A DNA stretch of 49,137 bases, taken from positions 1 to 49,137 of the forward strand of contig JAYTXY010000024.1 of the NCBI GenBank assembly GCA_043742705.1, given 5' to 3'. The notes under the pieces are model-generated. The model ran no database searches and had not been told where the DNA came from. It saw only the letters and a list, made by a program, of their open reading frames with translations. A program made the translations under genes and the position numbers. Below are positions 4,088 to 45,113 of this stretch, in pieces. Within the stretch, counting starts at the first letter, position 1, and each line of letters starts with the position of its first letter. Origin of the DNA: Bacteroidota bacterium. Lineage in GTDB: Bacteria; Bacteroidota; Bacteroidia; AKYH767-A; 2013-40CM-41-45.

Positions 4088-4131
4088 GTGATACTTGATT
4101 TGACGACAAAGGTAAGAATTTGTACTTGGTG

Positions 4132-4932
4132 CTATTGAAAAAGCAATTCGCGCATTACGATATAACATCCCATTATCAATACAAACCAGCCAAACATCGG
4201 CTTCAATCGTGCTGCAGGAATGTGGCGGGCGATATTACTGCCCAGGAAAATTCCGGCCACGGAGAACGCGCAAAACTTAAAAAGGAAAATCCAATCGATG
4301 ATTGCCTGGTTGTGAAGATCACCGATAAAGCCAACAAATGCATTGGTCGCAATGATAAGCAGCGAAGTTCCGACAGCCATTTTGATCGGCACGCGTGCAA
4401 ACAAAACAAGAGATGGTATGATAAGAAATCCTCCGCCAACACTAACAAGCCCGGTCATTGCGCCAACAACAAATCCCAACACAAGAATCATCGGGTAGTT
4501 GAACGGACGCAACTCTGTAGCATCTGCACTACTGTATTTATTATTTCTGATCATTGAATAGGCGGCAGAGATCATCAGGATTGCAAACAATAACATGATG
4601 AAGACATCTTTCGTCAGTACAAAATTTTCTGACCGAAAAATAACAGATGGAATCAATGATAAAATAAATCGCCTGACAATGTAAACAGACACGAACGAAG
4701 GAAGTGCAAAAGCAACAGCGGTTTTATAATCCACCAGTTCTTTTCTCATGTAACTGATCGAGCCCGTCAAACTTGTTAATCCCACAATGAAAAGAGAGTA
4801 GCCGGTTGCAACCATCGGGTTGAAGTGCATGAGGTACACCAAAACAGGAACCGTCAGAATGGAACCTCCGCTGCCCAGAACCCCGAGCGTTAATCCAATG
4901 ATGACAGAACAGATGTATCCTAAAATGTCCAT
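4132..4932 (-). CDS. TauE/SafE-family sulfite/anion exporter (DUF81 membrane protein)
   Basis: 266 aa, strongly hydrophobic, with about 8 predicted helices and glycine-rich helix starts (GVLGSGGSILTVPVLVY, GLVSVGGGFLIIPSLVLF) typical of this family. It is co-directional with and tightly spaced to the MBL-rhodanese gene. Confidence 0.75.
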   Translation of the reverse strand: MDILGYICSVIIGLTLGVLGSGGSILTVPVLVYLMHFNPMVATGYSLFIVGLTSLTGSISYMRKELVDYKTAVAFALPSFVSVYIVRRFILSLIPSVIFRSENFVLTKDVFIMLLFAILMISAAYSMIRNNKYSSADATELRPFNYPMILVLGFVVGAMTGLVSVGGGFLIIPSLVLFARVPIKMAVGTSLLIIATNAFVGFIGDLHNQAIIDWIFLFKFCAFSVAGIFLGSNIARHIPAARLKPMFGWFVLIMGCYIVMRELLFQ

Positions 4933-9967: not shown

Positions 9968-12900
9968 ATGAAATCACGCAACCTGATTTTCCTTTCGTTC
10001 ATTGTTCTGGCAGCTTCCGGAGCATTCATTTCTTTTCAACAGAAGAAGGGTAAGAAACCAACAAGTCAAACAAGTACGGTGACGCTTTCCGGAAGCTATC
10101 AGCAGCAATGGTCAAGGGTTGACTCCCTTACCCAAAAGGGGCTTAGTAAATCAGCGCTTGAACAGGTGATGAACATTTACAAAAAGGCGAAGGCGGAAAA
10201 CAATGCTCCGCAATTGGTGAAGGCGGTTATTCACCGCATGAAGCTTCAAAGTTACACCGAAGAAGATGCCATGAAAAAAATGATTGGTGATCTGAAGAAA
10301 GAAGCATCGTCTGCACGATTTCCTGCGCGACCGCTTTTGCATAGCATGCTTGCCGAAACCTATGTGAGATTTTACGCACAGAACAGATATCGCTTTTTGA
10401 ACAGAACAGAAACTGCGGATTACAAAAATGATGACATTAATACATGGGACTTAAAAAAGATTGTCAAAGAAACAATTCATGAATACGAGTTGTCAATGGT
10501 TGATGAAGACAGTTCGAAGCACGCCCAGGTGAATATTTACGATGACGTAATTCAAAAAGGAAATGCAGATGACGCAAGAAAATTCCGTCCGTCATTGTAT
10601 GATTTTGTTGCGCATCGCGCACTTGATTTTTTTGTGAATGAAGAATCCGGATTGACGGAGCCGGCAAACAAATTCGAAATCAATAACGCTTTTTATATGA
10701 GCAATGCTGATATTTTTCTAAACGTTGTTTTAAAAGCAGACGACTCATTATCATTGAAATTCAGGGCAACAAAATTTTTTCAGAATCTAATTGCTTTTCA
10801 CCGGAGAGATGCTCATCCGGGAGCATTGATTGATGTTAATCTTGAACGATTGAAGTTTGTTCACGACAATATAACTCTTCCAAACAAAGACTCGCTTTAT
10901 TTTGATGCACTGCAGGAAATGGAAAAACAGTATGCCGACTATCCTGGCTCTGTTGATGTGCTCTTTGAAATTGCCTCAATGTATTTCGAGTGGGGAAACC
11001 GTTATGCATTCGGAGAAAAACCGGAAGCAAAAATGCTGATTAAAAAAGCAAAAGAAGTTTGTGAAGCCGGGATTTCAAGATTTCCTTATTCACAAGGAGG
11101 GTTGAATTGCAAATCGCTGAAAAGCCGGATTGAAGAAAAGTCGATGGCATTTACTATTGAGCAGATCAATATTCCCGATCAACCGTTTCGCGCAAAGCTT
11201 GATTATAAAAACATTCGGAGAATTTATTTCCGCATAGCAAAGAACGATCGTGACGAAACAAATGAATACGAGGATTTGTACGGAGAAAAACTTACCAAAC
11301 ATTATGTAAAGCTTCCTGTTATCAAACAATGGAATGTTGACGTGGAAGATGACGGAGATTTTCAACAACATTCAACAGAGATAAAAATTCCGGAACTTCC
11401 TGTTGGGAACTATGTAATTCTTTCCGGATCTGATCCGGATTTCAGCTATGAAAAGAATGCAGTTGCCTACACCACCTGTTGGGTGTCAAACATCAGCTAT
11501 GTAACGCGAAGACGCCAGGATGGCGGATTTGATTTTTATCTGCTTCACCGTGAAACCGGTGAGCCGCTTGCAGATGTAACTGCGCAACTCTATGCACAGG
11601 AATACGATTACATTTTCAGAAAATACAAATACGTTAAGCTGGACGCATTCAAGACAAATGCAGACGGCTTTTTCTCCGTTGCCTCCGTTTCTGATTACAG
11701 GAATTTCGACATTGAATTTACGCGTGGAAAGGATCGCCTGTTTCTGAATGATAACTTTTATCAATACCGTAATAATTCAGATGTCAGGAAAACAAGAACG
11801 CAGACTTTTTTCTTTACAGACAGATCGATTTACCGTCCCGGACAAACAGTTTATTTCAAAGGCATCGTTCTTGAAACTGATGGAGAAAAGAATTCCATCA
11901 AAACCAAACAGGCAACCACTGTCACAATGTTCGATGTAAACGGACAAAAAGTTTCCGACCAGACGCTTACCACAAATGAATACGGAACTTTTGGCGGAAG
12001 CTTCACCGCTCCAATGGGTTTGTTGAATGGCACGATGAGAATCGGAAATGAAAGCGGTTCGATTTATTTTTCCGTGGAAGAATATAAGCGACCAAAATTT
12101 GAAGTCACGTTTGAACCGATCAAAGGTGTTTACCGTCTGAATGATAAAGTAAGTGTCAAAGGAAGGGCCACGGCATACTCCGGGGCAAACATTGACAATG
12201 CGGAGGTGAAATACAGTGTTGTGCGCACGGCAACGTTTCCATTCTGGAATTATTACTGGCGCGGATATCCGCCATCACCGCAAATGGTAATCACACATGG
12301 AACGACCGCGACAAACGATCAGGGAGAATTTTCTATCACCTTCGATGCAATTCCGGATAACGGCATCGATAAAGAAACCAACCCGATTTTTAATTTTAAA
12401 ATTTCTGCAGACGTGACGGATTTGAACGGAGAAACGCAAAGCGGATCACAAAACGTGAGCGTCAGTTACAATGCGCTGATGCTATCGGTGGCAATTCCAT
12501 CGGAGTTGAATAGAGAGTCCGCAACAGATTTTATGATCAATACGAAAAATTTATCGGGAGAATTTGTTTCCACGAAAGGAATGATTGCTATTGCTAAACT
12601 AAAAGAGCCGTCACGTATTTTCAGAAAAAGAAAATGGCAGAGACCGGAAAAGCAGACACTCAGCAAAGAAGAATATGAACGAACATTTCCGTACGATCTT
12701 TATGCAGACGAAGACGACCCCGATAAATGGGAAAATGAAAACACGGTGTATGGCTCCGGTTTCAATACAGAAAAAGATTCGCTGCTTCATCTCGCATCAA
12801 TCAAAGATTGGAAACAAGGAATCTACAAACTGGAAGCAACAACGAAAGATAAATATGGCAGCGATGTAAAGTTTGTAAAATATTTTACGCTCTTTTCTGA

Positions 12901-15900
12901 AAAGGAAAAACAGGCGCCCCTTAAAAGAACAGATTGGTTTTATGTGATAAAAGATAATGCTGAACCGGGAAACTCCGATCAGTTTCTCATAGGAACACGC
13001 GATCAAGATGTAAAAGTGCTTTATGAAGTGGAACAAAAGGGAGAAGTCATCAGCAAACAATGGTTGCTTCTGAATGATGAACAAAAACGGATCGATGTTC
13101 CCATACTTGAATCGTACCGGGGAAACATCGCTGTCCATTTCACATTTGTAAAGCACAACCGTGATTATCATTTCGATCACGTTCTCACCGTTCCATACAC
13201 AAACAAAGCATTGGATATTTCTTTCGAAACATTCCGAAGCAAATTGTATCCCGGACAAAAAGAGGAATGGAAAATAAAAATTCGCGGAAAGGCCGGGGAA
13301 AAAGTTGCGGCAGAAATGCTCGCTACGATGTATGATGCATCGCTTGATGCGTTTAAGCCGCACAATTGGATGTTCAGTATTTACAATAGCTATTATTCCA
13401 CGCTTAACCTTGAAGCATACCGTTCTTTTGGAATAGCAAACTCAAACATATTTTCTCATGAGTGGAATAACTATGCTCCGGAAAAATTCAGAACGTATGA
13501 TCAATTAAACTGGTTCGGATTTTCTGGGGATAACTACTATTACCGAAACAGCAGAACAGAAAGAGAAGATGTTGTTCTTGATATGGCAGCTCCAATGATG
13601 TCGCCAAAGCGCGCGGAAACAACAATTGTTGCCGGGAATACGAAGGGCGCGTTTGCGGAAGGAAAGCAAAGTTTCAAAAAAGATGGCGGAGCGGACAAAG
13701 ATGAAAATAATTTGGAATCTACTGGAGAAACGGGAAAGGAAAAACAAAACCTCTCAGGAATAAAGGGAAGAGCCAACTTTAATGAAACGGCATTTTTCTA
13801 TCCCCAGCTTTCAACAAACGACAGCGGTGAAGTGATTGTCTCATTCACGCTTCCGGAAGCATTGACGCGTTGGAAGATGATGGGATTTGCCCACACCGCT
13901 GATTTAAAATACGGAATGATTGAAAAGGAATTGGTGACTCAGAAAGAGTTGATGGTGATTCCAGATCCCCCACGATTCTTTCGCGAAGGAGATAAAATTT
14001 CATTTACAACAAAAATTTCGAATCTCTCAGACAGTTTATTATCCGGAACGACACAGTTGTTTTTATACGATGCGATTACAATGCAGCCGCTGAATATTTT
14101 TATTCCATCATCGAAAAATATAAAAGGAGAGGCAACATCTGTTTTATCATTCACCGCTTCAAAAGGACAAAGCGCTACTGCAGAATGGAATCTTAGTATT
14201 CCGGAAGGCGTAGGAGCAATTACATATAAGGTCGTAGCGAAAGCGGGGAATTACAGTGATGGTGAAGAGCAAACAATTCCTGTGTTAACTAATCGCATGT
14301 TGGTTACAGAAACAATGCCGCTGCCCGTGAGGGGCAATCAAAGCAAGGCGTTTGAGTTTATCAAACTTAAAAATTCCGGAGCATCAACGACTCTTCGCAA
14401 TCACAAACTCACCCTTGAGTTTACTTCCAACCCTGCATGGTATGCTGTGCAAGCATTGCCTTACATGATGGAGTTTCCATATGAATGTTCCGAGCAGGTG
14501 TTCTCGCGTTATTATGCAAATGCAATTGCATCGCACATCGCGAATTCAAATCCTAAAGTGAAAGCAGTCTTTGACAATTGGAAAAGCAGCAGCCCGGATG
14601 CATTTTTATCCAACCTCGAAAAAAATCAGGAGCTAAAATCACTGATGCTGGAAGAAACACCGTGGGTTCTTGATGCGAAGAATGAATCCGAAAGAAAGAA
14701 ACGAGTCGCACTGTTGTTTGATCTGAATAAAATGTCGAATGAATTGAACGGTGCATTGTTGAAGTTGCAGAAGAAGCAGGTTGCAAATGGCGCGTGGCCA
14801 TGGTTTGACGGTATGCCGGATGACCGTTACATCACGCAATACATCGTTGAGGGCTTCGGTCACCTGGATCATCTCGGAGTAAAAAATGTTCGGGGGAATG
14901 ATAAGGTTTGGGAGATGGTGAAACGCGCGGTGCAATATCTTGATGCAAGAATCAAGGATGATTACAATCACCTTGTTGAAATAAAAGTTGATCTTTCAAA
15001 GAATCAGCTAAGCGCAATTCAAATCCAGTATTTGTATGCAAGAAGTTATTTCAAAGACATTGCGGTTTCATCAGAATCAAAAAAGGCGTTCGACTTTTAC
15101 AAAGACCAAAGCAAAAAATTCTGGTTAAACAATGGTGAATACCTCGAAGGAATGATTGCACTGGAGCTGAATCGTTTTGATGACGGTAACACAATTTCAA
15201 CAGACATTTTGAAATCTTTGAAAGAGAATTCTCAATATAGCGAAGAGTTGGGAATGTATTGGAAGAATAATACAGGCGGATATTATTGGATGCAGGCACC
15301 AATCGAAACACAGGCATTGATGATTGAAGCGTTTGATGAAATTACAAATGATCAGAAGGCCGTTGATGATATGAAAGTGTGGTTGCTTAAGCAAAAGCAA
15401 ACACAGGATTGGAAAACTACCAAAGCCACAGCAGAAGCATGTTATTCGTTGTTGCTAAGAGGAACAAACTGGCTGACAGAACAGGCGCCTGTTGAAATAA
15501 CCATCGGCAACAAAAAAATTAATGCAACAGAAATGCCGGACTTAAAAGTTGAAGCGGGAACAGGATATTTTAAAACATCCTGGAGCGGTGGCGATATAAA
15601 ACCCGAAATGGCAAACGTGAAAGTCGAAAACAAAAACAATGTCGTTGCCTGGGGCGCGCTTTACTGGCAGTATTTCGAACAGCTTGATAAAATAACTCCG
15701 CACCCAACGCCTATTAATCTGAAGAAGGAATTGTTTCTTGAAAAGAACTCTTCAACAGGACCGATCATTACTCCGATAACGACACAAACAAACCTGAAGC
15801 CGGGTGATCGCATCAAAGTTCGAATTGAATTAAGAGTTGACCGTGACATGGAATATGTAATGATGAAAGACATGCGTGCTGCCGGTTGTGAGCCGGAAAA

Positions 15901-16132
15901 TGTGTTGTCACAATTCAAATGGCAGGATGAACTCGGTTACTACGAAAGCACACGCGATGCTTCCACAAATTTCTTCTTTTCATATCTTCCGAAAGGAACA
16001 TATGTGTTCGAATATCCGTTGCGTGTTTCTCACAAAGGTGATTTCTCGAATGGCATTACTGAAATCCAGTGTATGTATGCTCCTGAATTTGCAGCGCACT
16101 CCGAAGGGATAAGGCTTTCGGTTAAGCAATAG
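9968..16132 (+). CDS. Alpha-2-macroglobulin family protein (large bacterial A2M with a thioester motif)
   Basis: 2054 aa with an N-terminal signal or anchor (LIFLSFIVLAASGAFISF). The MG-domain body follows. A charged, low-complexity bait-like segment lies at about nt 13550-13775 (...KRAETTIVAGNTKGAFAEGKQSFKKDGGADKDENNLESTGETGKEKQNL...). It sits directly before NFNETAFFYPQL. The thioester motif is PYECSEQ (CSEQ at nt 14486-14497, Cys 1507). Confidence 0.9.
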   Translation: MKSRNLIFLSFIVLAASGAFISFQQKKGKKPTSQTSTVTLSGSYQQQWSRVDSLTQKGLSKSALEQVMNIYKKAKAENNAPQLVKAVIHRMKLQSYTEEDAMKKMIGDLKKEASSARFPARPLLHSMLAETYVRFYAQNRYRFLNRTETADYKNDDINTWDLKKIVKETIHEYELSMVDEDSSKHAQVNIYDDVIQKGNADDARKFRPSLYDFVAHRALDFFVNEESGLTEPANKFEINNAFYMSNADIFLNVVLKADDSLSLKFRATKFFQNLIAFHRRDAHPGALIDVNLERLKFVHDNITLPNKDSLYFDALQEMEKQYADYPGSVDVLFEIASMYFEWGNRYAFGEKPEAKMLIKKAKEVCEAGISRFPYSQGGLNCKSLKSRIEEKSMAFTIEQINIPDQPFRAKLDYKNIRRIYFRIAKNDRDETNEYEDLYGEKLTKHYVKLPVIKQWNVDVEDDGDFQQHSTEIKIPELPVGNYVILSGSDPDFSYEKNAVAYTTCWVSNISYVTRRRQDGGFDFYLLHRETGEPLADVTAQLYAQEYDYIFRKYKYVKLDAFKTNADGFFSVASVSDYRNFDIEFTRGKDRLFLNDNFYQYRNNSDVRKTRTQTFFFTDRSIYRPGQTVYFKGIVLETDGEKNSIKTKQATTVTMFDVNGQKVSDQTLTTNEYGTFGGSFTAPMGLLNGTMRIGNESGSIYFSVEEYKRPKFEVTFEPIKGVYRLNDKVSVKGRATAYSGANIDNAEVKYSVVRTATFPFWNYYWRGYPPSPQMVITHGTTATNDQGEFSITFDAIPDNGIDKETNPIFNFKISADVTDLNGETQSGSQNVSVSYNALMLSVAIPSELNRESATDFMINTKNLSGEFVSTKGMIAIAKLKEPSRIFRKRKWQRPEKQTLSKEEYERTFPYDLYADEDDPDKWENENTVYGSGFNTEKDSLLHLASIKDWKQGIYKLEATTKDKYGSDVKFVKYFTLFSEKEKQAPLKRTDWFYVIKDNAEPGNSDQFLIGTRDQDVKVLYEVEQKGEVISKQWLLLNDEQKRIDVPILESYRGNIAVHFTFVKHNRDYHFDHVLTVPYTNKALDISFETFRSKLYPGQKEEWKIKIRGKAGEKVAAEMLATMYDASLDAFKPHNWMFSIYNSYYSTLNLEAYRSFGIANSNIFSHEWNNYAPEKFRTYDQLNWFGFSGDNYYYRNSRTEREDVVLDMAAPMMSPKRAETTIVAGNTKGAFAEGKQSFKKDGGADKDENNLESTGETGKEKQNLSGIKGRANFNETAFFYPQLSTNDSGEVIVSFTLPEALTRWKMMGFAHTADLKYGMIEKELVTQKELMVIPDPPRFFREGDKISFTTKISNLSDSLLSGTTQLFLYDAITMQPLNIFIPSSKNIKGEATSVLSFTASKGQSATAEWNLSIPEGVGAITYKVVAKAGNYSDGEEQTIPVLTNRMLVTETMPLPVRGNQSKAFEFIKLKNSGASTTLRNHKLTLEFTSNPAWYAVQALPYMMEFPYECSEQVFSRYYANAIASHIANSNPKVKAVFDNWKSSSPDAFLSNLEKNQELKSLMLEETPWVLDAKNESERKKRVALLFDLNKMSNELNGALLKLQKKQVANGAWPWFDGMPDDRYITQYIVEGFGHLDHLGVKNVRGNDKVWEMVKRAVQYLDARIKDDYNHLVEIKVDLSKNQLSAIQIQYLYARSYFKDIAVSSESKKAFDFYKDQSKKFWLNNGEYLEGMIALELNRFDDGNTISTDILKSLKENSQYSEELGMYWKNNTGGYYWMQAPIETQALMIEAFDEITNDQKAVDDMKVWLLKQKQTQDWKTTKATAEACYSLLLRGTNWLTEQAPVEITIGNKKINATEMPDLKVEAGTGYFKTSWSGGDIKPEMANVKVENKNNVVAWGALYWQYFEQLDKITPHPTPINLKKELFLEKNSSTGPIITPITTQTNLKPGDRIKVRIELRVDRDMEYVMMKDMRAAGCEPENVLSQFKWQDELGYYESTRDASTNFFFSYLPKGTYVFEYPLRVSHKGDFSNGITEIQCMYAPEFAAHSEGIRLSVKQ

Positions 16133-35400: not shown

Positions 35401-35437
35401 AAAAAAAACGCTTCAGAATTCTGAAGCGCTTTTTATT
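35401..35437. terminator. Bidirectional intrinsic terminator
   Basis: A perfect 20-nt palindrome, CGCTTCAGAATTCTGAAGCG (35409-35428), has an A-run upstream and TTTTTATTT downstream. It lies between convergent stops. Confidence 0.7.
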
Positions 35438-35453
35438 TAACGGGATAAAAAAA

Positions 35454-38360
35454 TTATTGAATCACTAGTTTCTGATACGAAGTTTTGTCTTTTGACGAAA
35501 CATGAATTGTATACAATCCTTTTGCAAATTTACTTACAGAAAATTCGCGGCTGTAATTTCCTCCGGTATTTTCTATTACATCAGAAGAAACAACGCGACC
35601 CACCGCATCAATGAATTCAACTTTTGAAGTTGTCGCATCCGCCAGGTCAAATGAAACGGTTACGTTTTCACCTGCAGGATTTGGATATACATGGAAATGA
35701 TTATCTGCAGAGATGTTGTTCACACCTGTCGGAATAATAATGATTGCCTGAACAGGAACACGCTCGCTAACACAAACGGTTGGAGGAACCACAATATTCC
35801 AATCATAAAAATAATAATAGGCCGAAGAACTTGTCGCGGAGCCTGTCCAGCCATTCGTAATGGTCACCTTTCCGCTCTGAATGTAAGGATAACCAACTCC
35901 TGAATTGCTTCTTTGCATAAAAGGAGAAGCCGCTCCGAAATTGGTATTGTCTAACGTGCCATTTGTAGTGATGCGATATCCGGTTCCGACAGCCAGCGAA
36001 AAATTTAATGGAACTACCGTTGTATCAGCAGAGAGGTTCACAACTAAAGAACGGATCACCGTTCCGACCGAATTCAGAATCTGAATTTCACGTGTACCAT
36101 AATGCGTTGATTCGGTATAAATTTTTACGGAAGCAAGCATACATGCAGAGGTAACATTAAAATCAAGGCCACCATTCACTCCATTGTTATACAAATTTCC
36201 ACCGGAATGATACGGCTGTCCTGCAAATTCACTTGACCCTCCATAGCTGGTTGCGTTTTCGGCCCAGTAAGTAGTGGTATTAAACAATACAGGTGTTGTA
36301 AATGAAAGCCCCGTGTACTGCAGTGTTCCTCCGGTTTGCTGATCGTACCAGGAAACAAAATTTCCTGTTGCATTTAAAGTAACAGCAGCGGGACCTGGCG
36401 ATGTTACATCGGGTGCAAAAGGAGGAGGATCTGGAAGCACATTTACTTCCGTGGAATCGGAAGTGAACGATACGCATAAACCCTGAATGGTTACTGCATA
36501 TTTTCCGGAAGCAGTCGCCACGATAGCTTGCGTGGTTTCTCCGGAATTCCAGGCATACGATGCTGCCTGTGTTGCGGTGAGCGTTACGCTACCTCCGCCA
36601 CAAAACTCAAGATGACCCGAAGTATTAATAGTTGGAGTTTCATCAGGATTTAATTCTACATCTACAGATGGAGAAATATTGGAACAACCATTTGCAGCGA
36701 TTACCGATACATTATAAAATCCTGTCGAGGATACAATAATTGATGAAGATGTTTCACCGGTTGACCAGTTGTAGGATGAAAACCCTCCAGTGGCGAGCGG
36801 GAGAGTTTGTCCTGTGCACAATCCAAATGGTCCAGGAATAACGTTTCCAGTAAGCGTACAACCTGCTTCAACAGCGGTTACAAACTGATCAGCTGCGAGG
36901 TTTGCGAAGCGGGTTTGTAAATGCGAAGGCCAGTCAATGTGCGCAGAGTCAACAGTCGTATGTTGTCCTAACCCAAAATGCAATTGCATGGAGTTGGATG
37001 TTCCGTAACTTTCACCTGCACGTACTTCACGAATTTGTTTTCCCCACGGACCGTAAAGTGTTACACGGGCACCAATGGCCCCTAAGTTACTCTGTGTCCC
37101 TTTTAAATCAAACGTGATAAAATGATAGGAGTTTTTCGTTGTGTTCATATAAAGCGCATCTGCGGTAGAACCGCTCGGAGTATTGTAACCGCCACCATAG
37201 GAGGTGATGACATCAATCTTCCCATCGTGATTCAAATCTCCAGTTGCAAAAGATAAGAAGGTTGTTCCTCCGAAAGGATTCGCAACTTCTGTGAACGTAT
37301 TATTACCATTGTTGTGAAACAGTGAAGTGCCCGAGTGATTGTAGCCGGATACCAATAAATCCAAATACCCGTCATTATCAAAATCTTCAAGAACAGATTC
37401 CAGTGATGAATAAGACAATGAAAAATTCGTGCTTGCTGTAATATCAGTATAGTGCCCTGTTCCATCATTGAGTAATACGAGACTTACATCACTGTGATTC
37501 GTCTCAATCAAATCTAAATCTCCATCGTTGTCTATGTCTCCAAAGCTGCTTGTCCATGTTTCTTTAAAATCGGTTGTTTCAATGCCGTACGATTGCGCCA
37601 TTTCTGTATAAACATTGCTTCCGTTGTTTACGAATAAGCGGTCTCTTCTGCGTTGATCTGTATTGCTGGTAACACCTAAGCGACAATGAGCAATGAAAAG
37701 GTCAAGGTCGCCATCGTTGTCAAAGTCCGTCCATACGCTTCCGTAGTTTCCTGAATCGTAAGGATCACCGCCACTGTATGTCATGCCCGGATTAATGTTT
37801 GTATTGATCAAAGTAGTTGTCTGTGTCAAAGTTCCGGTTCCGTCATTTTTATAAACTTTTGCATAGTCATTATCATCACATACAAAAAGATCGGCCCATC
37901 CATCATTATTAAAATCCCCGAACGTTACGTTCTGAACCAGATAACTTCCGGTTAATGTTGTGGTAGCGGCAGCAATCGTGCTTCCTGTCCATGATAGTTT
38001 GACAATATACATTGCACTGCCGGTACCGGTCGCCACATCTTTCCAGCCATTGTGGTCAACATCGGCTGCGGCCATTCCCCAGACTCTTGAAGTTCCTGAG
38101 ATATTGCCCAGGTTGTAGTGTGTGAAAGTTCCGTTCTTGTTTTGCAAGTCAACCATCAAGGTTGTTGACTGATCCATTTTAACAACATCATCAAGCCCAT
38201 CGTTGTTTACATCCACAATAGTCATTGCGCAACCACTATGCGTAGCTGTCGAAAGCGCGCTTGAACTTGTGAACGTAAATTGTGCCAGGCTTTGAAATGC
38301 AACGAAAAAAGAAAATAGTAAAATAAAAAACAGTGAGCGATTCAAGGTAGATGTCTTCAT
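35454..38360 (-). CDS. FG-GAP/VCBS-repeat beta-propeller protein with an ASPIC/UnbV domain, Ig-like repeats and a T9SS C-terminal sorting domain (CRTAC1-like)
   Basis: At least seven calcium-binding FG-GAP loops are present (VNNDGLDDV, VDHNGWKDV, FNNDGWADLFV, FDNDGDLDLFI, IDNDGDLDLI, FDNDGYLDLLV, LNHDGKIDVI). The UnbV-type segment is GARVTLYGPWGKQIREVRAGESYGTSNSMQLHFGLG. There are repeated Cys-bracketed modules (YNWSTGETSSSIIV / YAWNSGETTQAIV). The C-terminal tail is HVYPNPAGENVTVSF...LYTIHVSSKDKTSYQKLVIQ. I start at the ATG at 38360, which gives the signal peptide MKTSTLNRSLFFILLFSFFVAFQSLAQ. The track start at 38426 is a TTG. Confidence 0.85.
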   Translation of the reverse strand: MKTSTLNRSLFFILLFSFFVAFQSLAQFTFTSSSALSTATHSGCAMTIVDVNNDGLDDVVKMDQSTTLMVDLQNKNGTFTHYNLGNISGTSRVWGMAAADVDHNGWKDVATGTGSAMYIVKLSWTGSTIAAATTTLTGSYLVQNVTFGDFNNDGWADLFVCDDNDYAKVYKNDGTGTLTQTTTLINTNINPGMTYSGGDPYDSGNYGSVWTDFDNDGDLDLFIAHCRLGVTSNTDQRRRDRLFVNNGSNVYTEMAQSYGIETTDFKETWTSSFGDIDNDGDLDLIETNHSDVSLVLLNDGTGHYTDITASTNFSLSYSSLESVLEDFDNDGYLDLLVSGYNHSGTSLFHNNGNNTFTEVANPFGGTTFLSFATGDLNHDGKIDVITSYGGGYNTPSGSTADALYMNTTKNSYHFITFDLKGTQSNLGAIGARVTLYGPWGKQIREVRAGESYGTSNSMQLHFGLGQHTTVDSAHIDWPSHLQTRFANLAADQFVTAVEAGCTLTGNVIPGPFGLCTGQTLPLATGGFSSYNWSTGETSSSIIVSSTGFYNVSVIAANGCSNISPSVDVELNPDETPTINTSGHLEFCGGGSVTLTATQAASYAWNSGETTQAIVATASGKYAVTIQGLCVSFTSDSTEVNVLPDPPPFAPDVTSPGPAAVTLNATGNFVSWYDQQTGGTLQYTGLSFTTPVLFNTTTYWAENATSYGGSSEFAGQPYHSGGNLYNNGVNGGLDFNVTSACMLASVKIYTESTHYGTREIQILNSVGTVIRSLVVNLSADTTVVPLNFSLAVGTGYRITTNGTLDNTNFGAASPFMQRSNSGVGYPYIQSGKVTITNGWTGSATSSSAYYYFYDWNIVVPPTVCVSERVPVQAIIIIPTGVNNISADNHFHVYPNPAGENVTVSFDLADATTSKVEFIDAVGRVVSSDVIENTGGNYSREFSVSKFAKGLYTIHVSSKDKTSYQKLVIQ

Positions 38361-38438
38361 TTTTTGATCGTAGGGTTTATTCAACGGGTGAGGAGATAAT
38401 TTTGTCGTTTTGTTTTTAGAAAACAAAGTAATCGATTT

Positions 38439-40388
38439 TTATTGTAGCCTGATAATTTTTCGGTAGTGTATTTTCCCTTCAGATAAAATCTTCATCAAGT
38501 AAACAGATTGTTTGGACGGAAGTGCAACAGTACAGGAGTTGATGATTCCGTTAAAATTCATCTCATTCACCATTCGGCCTTGTAAATCATAAACATCGAT
38601 GTGTTTTATTCCATGTCCCGGGCGGGTTTTAACAAATACTTTTCCATCTGTTGAAAGGGTCGGATATACTTCAATTTCATTTTCACTTAACAGGTTTTGA
38701 TCGGTTGACAATACGACCATGTTGATGATGCTATCAGAAGCAATCCGCACAGGCGTTTGATCCGCATTATTAAACATGGTTCGGAATGAATCAATCTCCG
38801 GGCTGCTGTAAGTCATCATTTCATCCACCCATTTAGGCGGAACGGATTGATAATACATGTTTGCATGGACACTTACATTTCCAGTGACCAGCACGAGAGG
38901 TACATGATAATGAATGAGGTCCACTCCGGACCCTTCAACAGCATTTATCTTGTTGAAATCGTTATCGGCCAATGCATCATTTGAAATGCTTACAGTATCA
39001 TATACAGAAGATGTTGTAAGAAAACCGGCAGGAGGAATACGATCATCTTTGAGAAGAATCGCACCACGCTCAAGCACTGAAGTAAAATGACCGAATACAT
39101 CACCCATCACCAATTCATAAATCTGTGGTACATCCGATTGGTTGATCGCATCATGATGCGGTTCGAAGGAAGGGTTTTCACCAACCACATGGTAATCATT
39201 TGTGAAGGTTCCTGATTTGAAAACGGTATCCCCTGTTACATCAGTCACAACAAACTCAACAACTGCCCTGCGCGAAGGATAGCCGGAAGGGAATTTATGT
39301 CCGGCTTTGTTTTGAACCCGTACGTGAAAGTATGCGGTGTCATTTGCAACACTATCTGCAAGCAAACTGAAATGAATGGATCGTTCCTGCAGAAGTGCTT
39401 TTGTATCAGCAATGGTGGAATCAAACTGCCAGTCTGCGGCATCTGCCCCAAGTAATGCTTTATTATTTTTAATCAGGTTGACCATAAACGAATTTGCTCC
39501 TACAAATGTGTGTTGATTGAATGGAAAACGCGCCGGCAATGTGTTGAAACCATTTGCAATTACGATTGCATCTTCGAGGTGAGGCATGTGGCAGGTCTGG
39601 CAGGTAATGGTATCAGCAGGATATCGGGAGTTGAGATATTCGTGATAGGTTGCCTGCTCCGTAAATGTTCCTCCCGTGTAAACACCGAATGTATCAGTCG
39701 ACTGTGTGATCAACGTATGACACGCTGAACAAACACGTGCCTGGTTCATGTGATCGCTGTACGTGGGAGTATAACCCTCGTACAGTTGCATTGGGCCAAC
39801 ATCAGGAAGTGTGAAAGGACCATACACATTTTTGCTTGTGTCATAGGGTATAATTCCTGAATACGTACTTCCTACTGATGTTGCAATCGTATGACAGCTT
39901 TCGCAGGCAACTCCATCCTGTCCTAACGAATCAAACGCAAGATTCGCCAATCCGTAATGTGCCTCACCGTGAAACTGGGAAGTGTATTTGCCCATCGGTG
40001 CATGGCAGGAAGTGCATTTATCCGGCAACTCGGCAGCGTGAGACGGGTCGACTAAAATCTCATGACTTACTTTTGCTCGCCAGAACGGATCGCGTGCGCT
40101 GTTTGCCATCATCGTACTTTGCCAATGATCAAAAAGATTTACCGAGTTGCCGTTTTCATCTACGTTGGCAAGGTGAGTTAAATCGTATCCGTGACATTCT
40201 TTGCAATGAGAAGACGGTAGAAAATATTCACCGGGAGCAATGGGAGACATGATCTGGTTTTGAAATGCCCTTATTTCTTGTGAAGTGTGAAAAGAAGTCT
40301 TCACCTCATATCCACGAGGAATTAAGAATCCCATCAGGAGGATAAAAGAAAAAATAAGACTACTAACCAGAAGTAATTGTCGATGCAT
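38439..40388 (-). CDS. Pentaheme c-type cytochrome with a C-terminal non-heme domain and a T9SS-like sorting tail
   Basis: Five CXXCH motifs were verified at nucleotide level: CKECH 40191-40205, CTSCH 40002-40016, CESCH 39891-39905, CSACH 39717-39731, CQTCH 39588-39602. The N-terminus is a hydrophobic signal (LLLVSSLIFSFILLMGFLI). The last ~80 aa (IEVYPTLSTDGKVFVK...VYLMKILSEGKIHYRKIIRLQ) resemble the sorting tail of the neighbouring gene. Confidence 0.8.
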   Translation of the reverse strand: MHRQLLLVSSLIFSFILLMGFLIPRGYEVKTSFHTSQEIRAFQNQIMSPIAPGEYFLPSSHCKECHGYDLTHLANVDENGNSVNLFDHWQSTMMANSARDPFWRAKVSHEILVDPSHAAELPDKCTSCHAPMGKYTSQFHGEAHYGLANLAFDSLGQDGVACESCHTIATSVGSTYSGIIPYDTSKNVYGPFTLPDVGPMQLYEGYTPTYSDHMNQARVCSACHTLITQSTDTFGVYTGGTFTEQATYHEYLNSRYPADTITCQTCHMPHLEDAIVIANGFNTLPARFPFNQHTFVGANSFMVNLIKNNKALLGADAADWQFDSTIADTKALLQERSIHFSLLADSVANDTAYFHVRVQNKAGHKFPSGYPSRRAVVEFVVTDVTGDTVFKSGTFTNDYHVVGENPSFEPHHDAINQSDVPQIYELVMGDVFGHFTSVLERGAILLKDDRIPPAGFLTTSSVYDTVSISNDALADNDFNKINAVEGSGVDLIHYHVPLVLVTGNVSVHANMYYQSVPPKWVDEMMTYSSPEIDSFRTMFNNADQTPVRIASDSIINMVVLSTDQNLLSENEIEVYPTLSTDGKVFVKTRPGHGIKHIDVYDLQGRMVNEMNFNGIINSCTVALPSKQSVYLMKILSEGKIHYRKIIRLQ

Positions 40389-40496
40389 CCAGTGAACGTT
40401 GAAAGGGATAGTTAAACGGAGGAGTAAAGATAGAAAATACTTGTAACCGGTGCAATGAATTCCAAAGGGGCAGAGGGAGAAGGCACTCGTCCCTCG

Positions 40497-41699
40497 TCAC
40501 CTGCTTACAAGCTTATCCACGAATTCTGTAAATTCTGCTTTCCATTTTTCGAAATGCTCCCCGGTTGCCGGTCCTGAAAAGCCAGTATGAATTTTTCTGA
40601 CTTTATGATCCCCGTCAAGTACGATGGTCGTTGGAAATGAAAGAATGTTGTTCAACATCGGTAATGCTTTTACCCGAAGTCTCTGATCGTTGCTTCCTGC
40701 GTATAACAGTGTGTAATCGATGTCGTATCTTTTTTTCAATCGCTGAAGATTTTTTTTCGCAGTTGGAAATTCATTGATGCGCTCAAAGTCGAGCGCGATA
40801 ATTTCAACGCCTTTCTCTTTGTACTTTTTGTAAAACGGAGCGAGGAATGCTGTTTCATCCATGCAGTTCGGACACCATGTTCCCATAATTTGTACAATCA
40901 CAATTTTGTTTTGAAATTTTTTATCACTCAGCGAAACAAGGTTGCTATCAGTATCGGGAAAAGTAAAGCTGATTTTATCATAACCGGATTTTAGAAACGT
41001 GAGCGAGTCAGCATCAGGAAGAGTTGCATTTTCATTTCGTTCAGCTTTCCACGTGTCATGCCAATGTACTCCGGAATAATAGTGTCCGGTGATGGTTCCA
41101 TCTGTAGTATAATTTCCGGTGAACAAATAAAGATGCGAACCATCGAAGCAGAACAGTTTAAAAGTGCTTCCGGTTACGATTCCTTCGAGGTAACGGTAAT
41201 CTCCTATTGAAGTGAGAAATGTTCCGGCGAGTAAATGATCGTGTTGTTTAAATTCTCCGACAGAGTGATTGAGGGGAGGTGCGTCTCCCGCAAACACAAC
41301 ATCCCATCTTCCTGTCATGTTGAATGTTGGAGGAGTGAGCGAATCTTTAAAGCGAAACGATTCATGTGTTGCAACAAAAGGAATTACATTTTTATCTCTG
41401 CGCGCGTGATTCAAAAAGTTCCCTGAAATTTTATCGCCTGAAATTTTTCCTCTGAACTCAGAATCAAAAACAGGCATTTTAATAAAAACAGAATCTCCGG
41501 AATAATTTATTTCATCAACAAAAATTTTTTCTTCAGCATTGATGATGTCCATTGTCTTTTCTTTCACGTCCATCATGAACGGCAATTCTGTACTGTCGTT
41601 TAATTGCAATGCGTATCGCCAGAATCCTTTTTGCATCACCGTTTGTGATTTTGCAATGCAAGCGATCATCATGAGTAAAGCAAGTAAGCGGTATTTCAT
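40497..41699 (-). CDS. TlpA-family thiol-disulfide oxidoreductase with a large N-terminal beta-rich extension
   Basis: The thioredoxin-fold active site is IMGTWCPNCMDE (WCxxC) in the C-terminal ~150 aa. The N-terminus is a signal or lipobox-like sequence (LLALLMMIACIAKSQ). The ~230-aa N-terminal region is of the type commonly fused to Bacteroidota redoxins. Confidence 0.8.
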   Translation of the reverse strand: MKYRLLALLMMIACIAKSQTVMQKGFWRYALQLNDSTELPFMMDVKEKTMDIINAEEKIFVDEINYSGDSVFIKMPVFDSEFRGKISGDKISGNFLNHARRDKNVIPFVATHESFRFKDSLTPPTFNMTGRWDVVFAGDAPPLNHSVGEFKQHDHLLAGTFLTSIGDYRYLEGIVTGSTFKLFCFDGSHLYLFTGNYTTDGTITGHYYSGVHWHDTWKAERNENATLPDADSLTFLKSGYDKISFTFPDTDSNLVSLSDKKFQNKIVIVQIMGTWCPNCMDETAFLAPFYKKYKEKGVEIIALDFERINEFPTAKKNLQRLKKRYDIDYTLLYAGSNDQRLRVKALPMLNNILSFPTTIVLDGDHKVRKIHTGFSGPATGEHFEKWKAEFTEFVDKLVSR

Positions 41700-41766
41700 G
41701 GTGAAAATTTATAGAGCTTAAAGGTAAGCAATCACAAAAAATTTAATGACGAATATTCTTCGCGCG

Positions 41767-41810
41767 CTTTGCGCCTTTGCGAGAGAATAATTTCGCGCAA
41801 AGGCGCAAAG
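41767..41810. repeat. REP-like hairpin element, copy A
   Basis: Perfect 15-nt inverted repeat: CTTTGCGCCTTTGCG (41767-41781) and CGCAAAGGCGCAAAG (41796-41810), with a 14-nt loop. The same arms and geometry recur at 45070-45113. Confidence 0.75.
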
Positions 41811-41924
41811 TTCGCAAAGACGAAACCTTACAAAAGTGTAAGGTTTGGGATTCTTTTGCAGCAGATTACCACCAACTCACTGTTATATTGTACGTACAAT
41901 CCAACAAACTAAATTCAGAAAAAG

Positions 41925-45069: not shown

Positions 45070-45113
45070 CTTTGCGCCTTTGCGAGATAAAAATTTCACG
45101 CGAAGGCGCAAAG
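45070..45113. repeat. REP-like hairpin element, copy B
   Basis: CTTTGCGCCTTTGCG (45070-45084) pairs with CGCGAAGGCGCAAAG (45099-45113). There is one mismatch, which becomes a G-U pair. The loop is 14 nt and the orientation matches copy A. The flanks also align (GCTTTGCGCCTTTGCGAGA shared). Confidence 0.75.

Follow-up and report, generated by a model that had tools for sequence, protein, structure and literature searches.

Immediately adjacent genes for a pentaheme c-type cytochrome and a CRTAC1-like FG-GAP/UnbV propeller protein form a conserved unit in Bacteroidia. We found both in a 49,137-nucleotide contig from a Bacteroidota bacterium (JAYTXY010000024.1, the whole of which is referred to as the window). 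The functional unit is most likely a two-gene operon, with co-transcription suggested by the gene arrangement, and not the three-gene cluster with a TlpA-like gene that an earlier note had proposed. We consider it somewhat better than even (probability about 0.55) that this operon encodes an extracellular pair, in which a propeller is combined with an electron relay. We found no description of such a cytochrome-propeller pair in the literature.

In the proposed mechanism, both proteins would enter the periplasm via Sec, and the general cytochrome c maturation machinery would load the five hemes of the cytochrome there. The folded cytochrome and the propeller protein would then be exported by the T9SS, via their type A CTDs, to the cell surface or the medium, where they would act as a single extracellular redox device. 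The propeller protein, with its Ig-like domains as a stalk, may bind, or act on, a substrate or surface, and the pentaheme module may shuttle electrons, in one direction or the other, between the propeller site and an external donor or acceptor. The TlpA-like protein would be an ordinary envelope thiol reductase that lies beside the pair in this lineage by descent. Like any reductase of this kind, it may help to keep CXXCH cysteines reduced, but it would not be a dedicated component.

All three genes are on the minus strand. The TlpA-like gene (41699..40497; 400 aa) is followed, after a 108-nt spacer (40389..40496), by the cytochrome gene (40388..38439; 649 aa) and, after a further 78 nt (38361..38438), by the FG-GAP gene (38360..35454). 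This layout was reproduced as first reported. The FG-GAP gene itself was also confirmed, but the length of its product had been given as 969 aa, which is off by one: the ORF starts with the ATG at 38360 and has 969 codons including the stop, and the protein has 968 aa. Domain matches of the locus proteins are far above chance.

Of 166 related loci in the synteny set, 155 were evaluable for an FG-GAP/UnbV partner. In 130 of these 155, the next gene downstream of the cytochrome gene is a same-strand FG-GAP/UnbV gene, and a co-directional downstream FG-GAP gene is present in all loci with a cytochrome at least 51% identical to that of the window. At least five Ca loops are encoded by 125 of 133 downstream genes, and the gap between the two genes has a median of 64 nt in the relatives. 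The two T9SS cargo genes recognized earlier are a real, co-directional and deeply conserved pair, and the products of both end in type A CTDs. The pairing was also seen from the propeller side. One FG homologue (P0490), picked independently of the cytochrome list, has a gene for a 650-aa cytochrome 63 nt upstream, and, among the top 120 FG homologues, at least 45 are on contigs equal in length to one that carries a cytochrome homologue. Pairwise distances of the cytochrome and propeller proteins are correlated (r = 0.86, 96 pairs), although this mirror-tree comparison is confounded by shared phylogeny.

The neighbors of the pair are diverse: 59 different families were counted upstream and 59 downstream, and 87 loci have 71 combinations of flanks. 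Any other neighbor family occurs at a given position in at most 12 of 167 loci. In one locus (L094), the cytochrome-propeller cassette is inverted as one unit. The Bacteroidetes-type promoter box TAnnTTTG is enriched ahead of the cytochrome gene, with 50 of 151 loci having it there (about 7% expected), but it occurs in only 10 of 122 cytochrome-propeller spacers. By their adjacency, varied flanks and box placement, the two genes are a conserved two-gene unit. T9SS cargo genes commonly cluster, and CTDs also occur in 9 of 77 upstream neighbor families. Such clustering could mean that the two genes are merely co-located, co-regulated T9SS cargo with independent functions. This is extremely unlikely, however, as no other CTD-bearing neighbor is conserved, and the pairing survives both the 59 by 59 flank contexts and the cassette inversion.

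The cytochrome (38439..40388) begins with a signal-like hydrophobic segment, followed by a five-heme domain (approximately aa 35-300), a conserved Ig-like/beta-sandwich domain (approximately aa 320-560) and a T9SS type A C-terminal sorting domain (aa 574-649; 38442..38669, minus strand). As described earlier, five CXXCH motifs are present (starting at aa 62, 125, 162, 220 and 263). On the minus strand these are CKECH (aa 62-66; 40191..40205), which is invariant in 154 sequences, CTSCH (aa 125-129; 40002..40016), CESCH (aa 162-166; 39891..39905), CSACH (aa 220-224; 39717..39731) and CQTCH (aa 263-267; 39588..39602). The last is followed by an invariant M-P, a feature shared with T. tepidum c552. 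Exactly 10 Cys are conserved across the 154 family members. Distal ligands could come from seven conserved non-proximal His and five invariant Met, and thus all five hemes may be six-coordinate. The sorting domain scores 27 bits against TIGR04183 (cut-off 23), its profile matches the CTDs of 8glk_D, 9whd and 5hfs, and Foldseek aligned it to the CTDs of RemA, RemZ and NucA with TMt of 0.78-0.82. It resembles the CTDs of T9SS substrates seen in translocon complexes. In line with secretion of both proteins, PorP/SprF genes and other CTD-bearing genes recur next to the pair.

The cytochrome is a member of the pentaheme c552/ExtKL (MccSep; “PHC”) superfamily. The family profile matched pentaheme c552 of T. 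tepidum (PDB 5ze8) with an E-value of 1.7e-6 in three collinear segments, and MccSep/ExtKL (9wt8) weakly. The top Foldseek match of the cytochrome model was likewise 5ze8; because this AF2 model is poor (pLDDT 49), the likeness to the c552 fold is supported by a weak model and a modest profile E-value. Five CXXCH motifs together with a GHK[FL]P[ST]GxPxRR loop define a family of 3927 representative clusters. Three representative clusters, including one from Phycisphaerae (Planctomycetota), have the pentaheme core joined to PQQ/GSDH sugar-dehydrogenase propellers, and one of these fusions also has a discoidin domain. These fusions to dehydrogenase propellers point toward a relay role. The core is also fused to DUF642 plus dockerin, and in Gemmatimonadota its gene is translationally coupled to a class I cytochrome c gene.

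Instead of a relay, the cytochrome could be a stand-alone secreted or surface enzyme that, like MccSep, NrfA or OTR, performs one-heme redox chemistry on small soluble species (polysulfide, other S/N oxyanions or peroxide). The propeller protein would then only be expressed alongside it, as an adhesin, anchor or stalk. We regard this reading as unlikely. It would be in line with the superfamily kinship with the polysulfide reductase MccSep, whose catalytic loop aligns to the best-conserved motif of the cytochrome. This motif is the signature loop of the Ig-like domain (NKAGHKFPSGYPSRR; aa 360-374; 39267..39311, minus strand), which is invariant in the T9SS clade, and the Ig-like domain is conserved as strongly as the heme domain. 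No co-directional downstream propeller partner is present in 25 of the 155 loci, often on deep branches (43-50% identity), and in four of these an FG gene adjoins the cytochrome gene but is convergent. Given that the propeller partner is often missing in deep branches, the cytochrome can work alone. Rhodanese genes adjoin the cytochrome gene in one deep clade, and the Ig-like part of the propeller protein resembles the Aureispira grappling hook protein GhpA, a surface appendage. However, the catalytic Cys and Sec of MccSep are absent from the cytochrome. There is no conserved Cys or Sec outside the CXXCH motifs, and thus the His/Cys-plus-Sec chemistry of MccSep is excluded. In an alignment with 9wt8 and 5ze8, the catalytic selenocysteine U325 of MccSep corresponds to Y370, and this position is variable among representative sequences of the wider family that have the loop (Y in 78, F in 34, I in 24 and H in 4). 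The possible six-coordination of all five hemes also argues against an enzyme of this kind, and the dehydrogenase-propeller fusions favor the relay.

The CRTAC1-like protein was annotated using Pfam, Ca loops, AF2 and Foldseek. A signal peptide and a seven-blade Ca-binding FG-GAP propeller (aa 28-420) are followed by UnbV/ASPIC (aa 428-495; UnbV_ASPIC E 4e-20), Ig-like domains (approximately aa 500-715, with an Ig_7 match), a conserved beta-rich domain without known family (approximately aa 716-880) and a T9SS CTD (aa 891-968; Por_Secre_tail E 6e-13), which passes the TIGR04183 cut-off. Seven DxDxDGxxD loops are located at aa 50, 100, 149, 212, 275, 326 and 375. The seven Ca loops and the domains after the propeller agree with the earlier description. 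The AF2 model (pLDDT 84) has murine CRTAC1 as its top Foldseek match (9etn, E 2e-20, TMt 0.67), and the protein also matches 9etn by sequence. We know of no FG-GAP/UnbV propeller with redox chemistry. CRTAC1-like genes next to heme-c genes have an independent precedent (PMC12758564).

It is very unlikely that the pair is a surface device for extracellular electron transfer, in which the cytochrome, possibly polymerized as in c552-related archaeal cytochrome nanowires, delivers electrons from respiration to minerals or humics and the propeller serves as a mineral-binding scaffold. The cytochrome does bear an export tag, and the PHC family has been tied to ExtKL and the AvECN nanowire (PMC11976967). 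A weak match to MtrC/MtrF domain II/IV falls just under the cut-off (29.9 vs. 30 bits), and, with the cytochrome being of c552/ExtKL type, an MtrC-type surface reductase was rejected. No gene for an outer-membrane electron conduit, porin-cytochrome or periplasmic cytochrome was found in conserved neighbor positions, and no obvious electron donor gene near the pair. To our knowledge T9SS cargo is lipid-anchored or released, and we know of no electrical link from it to the periplasm. The pair occurs in hundreds of uncultured species, with no cultured carrier among the best 80 genome matches, and the carriers are Bacteroidia from soils, lakes and wastewater, a class known best as aerobic heterotrophs.

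The TlpA-like gene is probably a neighbor and not part of the unit. Its product, a thiol-disulfide oxidoreductase, may carry a lipoprotein signal. About 235 aa at the N terminus form a domain with no Pfam or NCBIfam match at E ≤0.01, and a Redoxin domain (PF08534, E 1e-14) holds the WCPNC motif already noted (aa 275-279; nt 40863-40877). Among PDB entries the protein matches B. subtilis ResA best (E 2e-11), but it is below the NCBIfam ResA, TlpA and DsbE cut-offs. The earlier note had considered this protein the dedicated reductase for apocytochrome CXXCH cysteines in a three-gene surface redox module, which now seems improbable. The relationship to ResA is consistent with that role, and in the window, L085/L087, L086, L088, L089 and the contexts of P0004, P0035 and P0032 the gene immediately precedes the cytochrome gene in the same orientation, with outer flanks that differ among these loci. 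Moreover, the 108-nt spacer has no significant RNA structure or clear terminator. However, the adjacency is restricted to the clade of the window (cytochrome at least 60% identical), where 5 of 13 evaluable tree leaves have it and 8 do not. It was found in none of 129 more distant loci (<60% identity). The TlpA-like gene (7 loci) is conserved no better than the unrelated flank genes dus (9 loci) and a CAAX protease gene (8 loci). L094 and L112 carry the cassette in inverted orientation, convergent with the TlpA-like gene, which makes TlpA-cytochrome co-transcription impossible there. The spacer in the window includes a near-consensus Bacteroidetes -7 box (TATCTTTA; 40432..40425, minus strand), 36 nt upstream of the cytochrome ATG, which by its sequence is a candidate working promoter. 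L085 and L086 have an exact TAnnTTTG box in the same place. TlpA orthologues remain linked to an aldehyde dehydrogenase backbone gene; the orthologue on JADKKE010000003.1 is about 123 kb from the pair, and that in Pontibacter has an unrelated context.

Genes for thioredoxin folds of any kind are modestly enriched near the pair, at 5 of 262 gene families within two gene slots compared with 1 of 531 at greater distance (p = 0.017, Fisher test applied post hoc), but the enrichment is not significant for strict adjacency only (p = 0.12). The enrichment includes a DsbD gene directly upstream of the pair in an independent clade of eight loci. L137 has Redoxin genes next to the cytochrome gene, and L077 has one at slot -2. 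Because of this weak enrichment, a maturation tie between the pair and thiol reductases survives as a weak residue.

Both ends of the cluster are as reported earlier. A strong bidirectional intrinsic terminator (35401..35437) closes the pair and a convergent methyltransferase gene; its hairpin (35409-35428) has an A-run on one flank and a T-run on the other, and a fold of -21.4 kcal/mol (z = -5.7 vs. shuffles). The repeat-rich 225-nt region upstream is a divergent promoter region between the TlpA-like gene and a DUF2147 gene, and includes a palindromic intergenic repeat (41757..41820) with 28-nt arms and a CGCAAAGGCGCAAAG core, a second copy of which is located at 45070-45113.

Three large minus-strand ORFs make up the cluster at 41699..35454. 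The first (41699..40497) encodes a TlpA-like protein of 400 aa with a Redoxin/AhpC-TSA/Thioredoxin_8 domain at aa 244-375 (Redoxin E = 1e-14) and a WCPNC motif at aa 275-279; for the N-terminal 235 aa, neither Pfam nor NCBIfam gave a match at E up to 0.01. The second (38439-40388, minus strand) encodes a 649-aa cytochrome with exactly five CXXCH motifs and a C-terminal T9SS domain. Its ATG at 40388 is backed by homologues of 643-650 aa. The public gene call for this protein (P0001, 631 aa) starts 18 codons late and has lost the hydrophobic signal segment. The third (38360..35454, with the ATG at 38360) encodes a propeller protein of 968 aa with FG-GAP_3 (E = 6e-45), UnbV_ASPIC (E = 4e-20), Ig_7 and Por_Secre_tail (E = 6e-13) domains and seven DxDxDGxxD loops. 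The spacers are 108 nt (TlpA-like/cytochrome) and 78 nt (cytochrome/propeller). A terminator hairpin with an A-run and a T-run at its sides lies at 35409-35428 (-21.4 kcal/mol, z = -5.7), and the 225-nt region upstream of the cluster contains a palindrome with 28-nt arms. The earlier note had described these genes, spacers, motifs, domains, terminator and upstream repeat accurately, and we reproduced its description. Scans against Rfam and for tRNAs gave no match within the cluster.

We found more than 2800 homologues of the cytochrome at E up to 1e-5. The best 120 are all metagenomic, and the few with a source name are Bacteroidota MAGs. The related loci compared with the window comprised 80 from species-representative genomes (which hold at least 593 matching stretches), 80 metagenomic loci and six obtained by exact look-up, and their neighbours were analyzed by ORF calling and clustering. 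The sole conserved neighbour family is the FG-GAP/UnbV gene, which occupies the next downstream slot on the same strand in 133 loci; the runner-up at any position was found in 12 loci only. The arrangement holds without exception where the cytochrome is at least 51% identical to that of the window; the loci that lack it are confined to deep branches (43-50% identity), and four of these loci have the FG gene adjacent but convergent. Among the 133 downstream genes, 125 encode five or more Ca loops and another five are truncated at contig ends. The spacer between the two genes has a median of 64 nt across the related loci, and the flanks of the pair include 59 upstream and 59 downstream gene families. 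The pair is carried by at least several hundred species-level genomes.

In the reverse test, the 120 best propeller homologues all had the same architecture, and at least 45 of them are on contigs equal in size to cytochrome-bearing contigs. P0490, a propeller homologue picked from outside this set, is preceded by a gene for a 650-aa cytochrome at a distance of 63 nt. Pairwise distances of the cytochromes and propellers correlate with r = 0.86, a value to which shared phylogeny contributes and which was not reached in any of 500 permutations. In 50 of 151 loci the 150 nt that precede the cytochrome gene contain a Bacteroidetes -7 box (TAnnTTTG), where about 7% of loci would be expected to have one; only 10 of 122 cytochrome-propeller spacers contain the box. 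The conserved arrangement, this distribution of promoter boxes and the terminator fit a two-gene operon, and the cytochrome and propeller genes are probably co-transcribed. With a single conserved neighbour family amid such variable flanks, we regard coincidental co-location of the two genes as highly improbable. We have little doubt that the cytochrome and the propeller protein form a conserved functional pair of T9SS-tagged proteins.

The earlier note had proposed a three-gene surface redox module in which the TlpA-like protein is a dedicated maturation reductase for the cytochrome. None of 80 GTDB loci had a TlpA-like gene near the cytochrome gene, a result for the GTDB loci only that overstated the case against adjacency. 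A 400-aa orthologue lies directly upstream of the cytochrome gene in L085/L087, L086, L088 and L089 and in the contexts of the homologous proteins P0004, P0035 and P0032, and the outer flanks vary among these loci. All of this adjacency falls within the window's own clade, where the cytochromes are at least 60% identical. Among the 14 leaves of that clade on the NJ tree, five have the adjacency, eight have none and one is unscorable. The cytochrome and propeller genes stay together in 130 of the 155 loci with enough downstream sequence. The TlpA-like gene is adjacent in none of the 129 evaluable loci below 60% cytochrome identity.

As a positional control, we counted Dus beside the pair in 9 loci, CAAX protease in 8 and TlpA in 7. 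Neither Dus nor CAAX protease has a plausible link to a cytochrome. In locus L094 (6843-14369) the gene order is CAAX, Dus, cytochrome, propeller, TlpA (minus strand), which is the arrangement of the window with the two-gene cassette alone inverted, and in locus L112 the TlpA gene is likewise convergent to the cassette. The inversion indicates that the cassette moves as a unit while the TlpA gene stays put. Exact -7 boxes occur between the TlpA-like and cytochrome genes in L085 and L086; their counterpart in the window is TATCTTTA at 40432..40425, and this spacer has no clear terminator.

TlpA orthologues of 48-50% identity occur in other contexts in Pontibacter korlensis and two MAGs, and in the two MAGs the gene is linked to an aldehyde dehydrogenase gene 86% identical to that of the window. 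Contig JADKKE010000003.1 carries both, with the TlpA orthologue at ~30 kb and the pair ~123 kb away at ~154 kb. The protein resembles TlpA/ResA/CcmG in its Redoxin fold with WCxxC, and its best solved relative is the ResA of B. subtilis (E = 2e-11), which fits a thioredoxin fold with a CXXC active site. It differs from that group in its extra 235-aa N-terminal domain, in scores below every NCBIfam equivalog or subfamily cut-off (ResA 60 versus 170, TlpA 23 versus 230, DsbE 24 versus 123), in having no ccsBA/resBC linkage within the window and in orthologues that occur independently of the cytochrome. We conclude that the adjacency in the window represents inherited local synteny. A linked, dedicated reductase does not agree with adjacency in only part of one shallow clade and a separation of 123 kb elsewhere, and despite the suitable active site we consider the three-gene module quite unlikely. 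We also considered insertion of the cassette between the TlpA-like and methyltransferase genes, based on a 206-aa methyltransferase beside the Pontibacter TlpA orthologue. This idea was dropped because the Pontibacter and window methyltransferases are only 27% identical.

Other thiol-active proteins are encoded beside the cytochrome gene in some relatives. In a monophyletic clade of eight loci, L006 (7681-9798, plus strand), L009, L010, L011, L014, L021, L095 and L097, a full-length DsbD gene (DsbD_N, DsbD_TM and thioredoxin-like domains) is directly upstream of the cytochrome gene and co-directional, at a distance of 106-283 nt, and in locus L137 two Redoxin genes lie next to the cytochrome gene. 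Of the 262 gene families within two slots of the pair, 5 are of the thioredoxin fold, compared with 1 of the 531 located farther out (one-sided Fisher p = 0.017); with strict adjacency p = 0.12. The two-slot threshold was picked post hoc, after the data had been seen, so we take the enrichment as a weak hint that a cargo with ten cysteines may benefit from a nearby capacity for thiol reduction.

The family of the cytochrome was recognized by profile search alone, as a PDB search with its single sequence gave no match. A profile of 27 members matches PDB 5ze8, the pentaheme cytochrome c552 of Thermochromatium tepidum (E = 1.7e-6), in three collinear segments: hemes 2-3, heme 5 and a loop of the C-terminal domain. 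Through the same loop the profile weakly matches 9wt8, the multiheme selenoprotein MccSep/ExtKL. The AF2 model built from 27 sequences is poor (pLDDT 49, heme domain unmodelled), and from it we used only the top Foldseek match and the CTD matches; the top match is again 5ze8 (E = 3e-6), with TM of only 0.22 and 0.34. Like c552, the cytochrome has an N-terminal helical domain that holds the five CXXCH motifs and then an Ig-like beta-sandwich with a conserved H-x-x-P-x-G-x-P-x-R loop, and heme motif 5 (CQTCHMP) is identical. We know of no established role for c552.

The pentaheme cytochromes ExtKL, Gsu2801 and those of cable bacteria have been grouped with c552 in a published "PHC" family, for which a proposed relation to an archaeal cytochrome nanowire was noted (PMC11976967). 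Compared with c552 and the PHC family (ExtKL/MccSep GSU2937-2936, Gsu2801 and the cable-bacteria sPHC/lPHC), the window cytochrome has ~200 aa more. Its C-terminal domain is far larger and highly conserved, and it ends in a T9SS tail, whereas the known members are periplasmic.

Across 154 sequences the five CXXCH motifs are invariant, and their ten cysteines are the only conserved cysteines. Seven non-proximal histidines (H34, H117, H213, H249, H293, H364 and H411) and five methionines are conserved in at least 92% of these members, and by this count all five hemes could be six-coordinate. The loop of the Ig-like domain, NKAGHKFPSGYPSRR, lines up with PHAMPTGAPFRN in 5ze8 and with AGHSIPDGUPTPNR in 9wt8. 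MccSep reduces polysulfide in the periplasm; it has a cap with five hemes and an Ig-like stem, and its active site is formed by Sec325 in the stem loop and Cys239, the distal ligand of heme 2 (bioRxiv 10.1101/2025.11.18.688581). In the alignment Sec325 corresponds to Y370 of the cytochrome, which, together with the whole loop, is invariant in the 154 members (the T9SS clade). MccSep chemistry is excluded because only the CXXCH cysteines are conserved and Tyr takes the Sec position; the protein thus has neither the heme-ligating Cys nor a catalytic Sec/Cys, and its score with NF040886, the NCBIfam model for ExtKL, is 27 bits (cut-off 250).

An exhaustive profile search recovered 3927 representative clusters at E up to 1e-3, and 842 with the limit tightened to 1e-30; among 188 representative sequences 155 have exactly five CXXCH motifs. 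The shared core of this wider family is the heme domain plus the central domain, and the tail is absent in many members. Loop-bearing representatives follow GHK[FL]P[ST]GxPxRR, where x is Y (78), F (34), I (24) or H (4). We therefore discarded the Tyr at the Sec position as evidence for catalysis: since the position varies, the Tyr is specific to its clade and is no family-wide catalytic residue. The superfamily is very large, and its characterized relatives are only the polysulfide reductase and cytochrome c552.

Weak multiheme Pfam matches of the cytochrome include MtrC/MtrF II/IV (29.9 bits; cut-off 30). An assignment to the MtrC/MtrF/OmcA type was rejected, as the score is below the cut-off and there are five hemes, not ten. 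No porin or periplasmic decaheme gene is present at any conserved neighbour position of the pair. A respiratory surface conduit or nanowire could draw on this near-threshold match and on the nanowire relation proposed for PHC proteins; set against these neighbours and the score below the cut-off, it is very improbable.

The AF2 model of the propeller protein (40 homologues) has a pLDDT of 84, and its best Foldseek match is murine CRTAC1, 9etn (E = 2e-20, TMt 0.67 over 543 columns). Membership in the CRTAC1/ASPIC-UnbV family is established by the Ca-binding FG-GAP propeller with seven Ca loops and the UnbV_ASPIC domain that follows, the same order as in CRTAC1. In contrast to CRTAC1, the window protein adds Ig-like domains, an unassigned beta-rich domain and a T9SS tail, and its gene is paired with a cytochrome gene. 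Conservation extends over its full length, including the beta-rich domain at aa 716-880, and no redox cofactor motif is evident in its sequence. To our knowledge, the bacterial CRTAC1/ASPIC-UnbV family has no established function. The Ig-like region resembles segments of the Aureispira grappling-hook protein GhpA. Such a resemblance would suit an adhesin that is co-expressed with a stand-alone enzyme for a small molecule, and polysulfide reduction by MccSep offers a precedent for the enzyme. We think this division of labour unlikely, as the MccSep residues are not conserved in the cytochrome.

Both proteins have hydrophobic N-termini by sequence (MHRQLLLVSSLIFSFILLMGF and MKTSTLNRSLFFILLFSFFVAFQSLAQ) and T9SS tails. 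The tail of the propeller protein scores 40.8 with TIGR04183 (cut-off 23) and 49.3 with Pfam PF18962 (cut-off 27); that of the cytochrome scores 27 bits with TIGR04183 (cut-off 23) and 16.9 with Pfam (cut-off 27). The CTD model of the cytochrome superposes on translocon-bound CTDs of the T9SS substrates RemA, RemZ and NucA with TMt of 0.78-0.82. In the literature searched, we found no description of a T9SS-exported c-type or multiheme cytochrome, of a cytochrome-CRTAC1-like operon or of a pairing of UnbV with a cytochrome. No cytochrome c maturation, respiratory or T9SS core gene is present in the 49-kb window. In five loci (L103, 6702-7754, plus strand, and four others), the gene immediately before the cytochrome gene, on the same strand, encodes a T9SS membrane protein of the PorP/SprF family, and T9SS tails occur in 9 of 77 distinct upstream neighbour families.

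Three representative clusters (P0303, P0354 and P0356) have a PF07995 PQQ-type glucose/sorbosone dehydrogenase propeller fused N-terminally to the same pentaheme core, with an F5/8 type C domain between propeller and core in P0354. The P0303 cluster is annotated as PQQ-dependent sugar dehydrogenase (Phycisphaerae); HON67499.1 is a Phycisphaerae fusion of this kind. These fusions look like an undescribed bacterial multiheme quinohemoprotein architecture. One more cluster has DUF642 before the pentaheme core and a dockerin behind it. On the Gemmatimonadota contig L168 (4856-6001, 6001-7677), the gene for a CTD-less cytochrome homologue is translationally coupled to one for a 381-aa class I cytochrome c, and the start of the former overlaps the stop of the latter. 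In combination, the propeller and DUF642/dockerin fusions and the coupling to class I cytochrome c show the pentaheme core as a modular partner in extracytoplasmic electron transfer that is repeatedly joined with beta-propeller or carbohydrate-binding modules.

Two known systems offer parallels. In other phyla, CRTAC1-family FG-GAP genes have been reported within gene clusters for heme-c proteins that resemble hydrazine synthase (PMC12758564), a second case of such a gene conserved beside extracytoplasmic c-type heme genes. The heme proteins there are homologues of HZS alpha and beta-gamma, and those clusters have no T9SS. Quinohemoprotein dehydrogenases likewise couple a secreted beta-propeller module to a cytochrome relay module, and the fungal AA12 PQQ pyranose dehydrogenase has a cytochrome domain and a CBM (PMC4332668). 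The partner in the window differs in being an FG-GAP/UnbV propeller with no known cofactor and a separate protein, and the cytochrome domain of AA12 carries a b-type heme, with a fold unlike that of the pentaheme core.

All parts belong to known superfamilies. The mechanism that we propose is that both proteins cross the inner membrane via Sec, and that the cytochrome would receive its five hemes in the periplasm from the general maturation system. The T9SS would then export both proteins folded, the cytochrome as holo-protein, to be anchored or released. Outside the cell, the two would presumably interact, the propeller protein serving in binding or catalysis and the pentaheme module relaying electrons to or from an external partner. 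On its own, we hold this division into relay and binding as tentative. For the statement as a whole, a T9SS-tagged functional pair with the relay-plus-binding mechanism, we give a probability of roughly 0.55. More speculatively, many uncultured, probably aerobic Bacteroidia may export a matured pentaheme cytochrome and a CRTAC1-like propeller through the T9SS as a new extracellular oxidoreductase, with a polymer or mineral bound by the propeller at one end of the electron transfer and external acceptors or oxidative enzymes at the other. This version is rather doubtful; if true, it would be a bacterial counterpart of fungal cytochrome-linked dehydrogenases and a first function for the bacterial CRTAC1/UnbV family. 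Should export be real, it would widen the T9SS cargo range to heme-loaded redox proteins and put redox chemistry at the cell surface of Bacteroidia that are common in soil, lakes and wastewater. The cytochrome operon and the propeller-cytochrome fusions elsewhere give a concrete, testable lead for the CRTAC1/UnbV and cytochrome families.

Other upstream neighbours of the pair, including M42 peptidase, pyruvate kinase, M14-CTD peptidase, YhdP-like, MacB/FtsX, ExbB, CBS, DinB, SecG and rhodanese, had no consistent theme. Isolated heme- or iron-related neighbours are a Haem_bd (PF14376) gene ~460 nt downstream of the pair on a 1.86-Mb contig (L172, 8377-8886, minus strand) and a ferritin gene after the cytochrome gene in locus L077. 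In locus L044, CCATTTGA/CCATTTAA octamers are in tandem directly before the start codon of the cytochrome gene (~100 nt upstream). Three independent assemblies of the closest relative (L081, L082 and L083; 74% identity) break ~400-450 nt upstream of the cytochrome gene, and because they end at the same place, a repeat or mobile element is suggested there. Locus L084 reaches farther upstream and has a 327-aa gene on the opposite strand with no Pfam match.

The remainder of the window is ordinary chromosomal backbone, with genes for Dus, SAM methyltransferase, CAAX protease, asparaginase, TatD, DUF2147, aldehyde dehydrogenase, RseP, DXR, MnmG, Kup, two-component proteins and alpha-2-macroglobulin. 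The bacterial alpha-2-macroglobulin (9968-16132, plus strand) has 2054 aa with MG2, A2M and bMG10 domains. A 492-aa protein (2690-4168, minus strand) with a metallo-beta-lactamase fold and two rhodanese stretches resembles a persulfide dioxygenase-sulfurtransferase fusion. A palindromic intergenic element with the core CGCAAAGGCGCAAAG occurs in two copies, at 41757-41820 and 45070-45113, each just 5′ of minus-strand genes (4 motif matches versus 0.42 expected).
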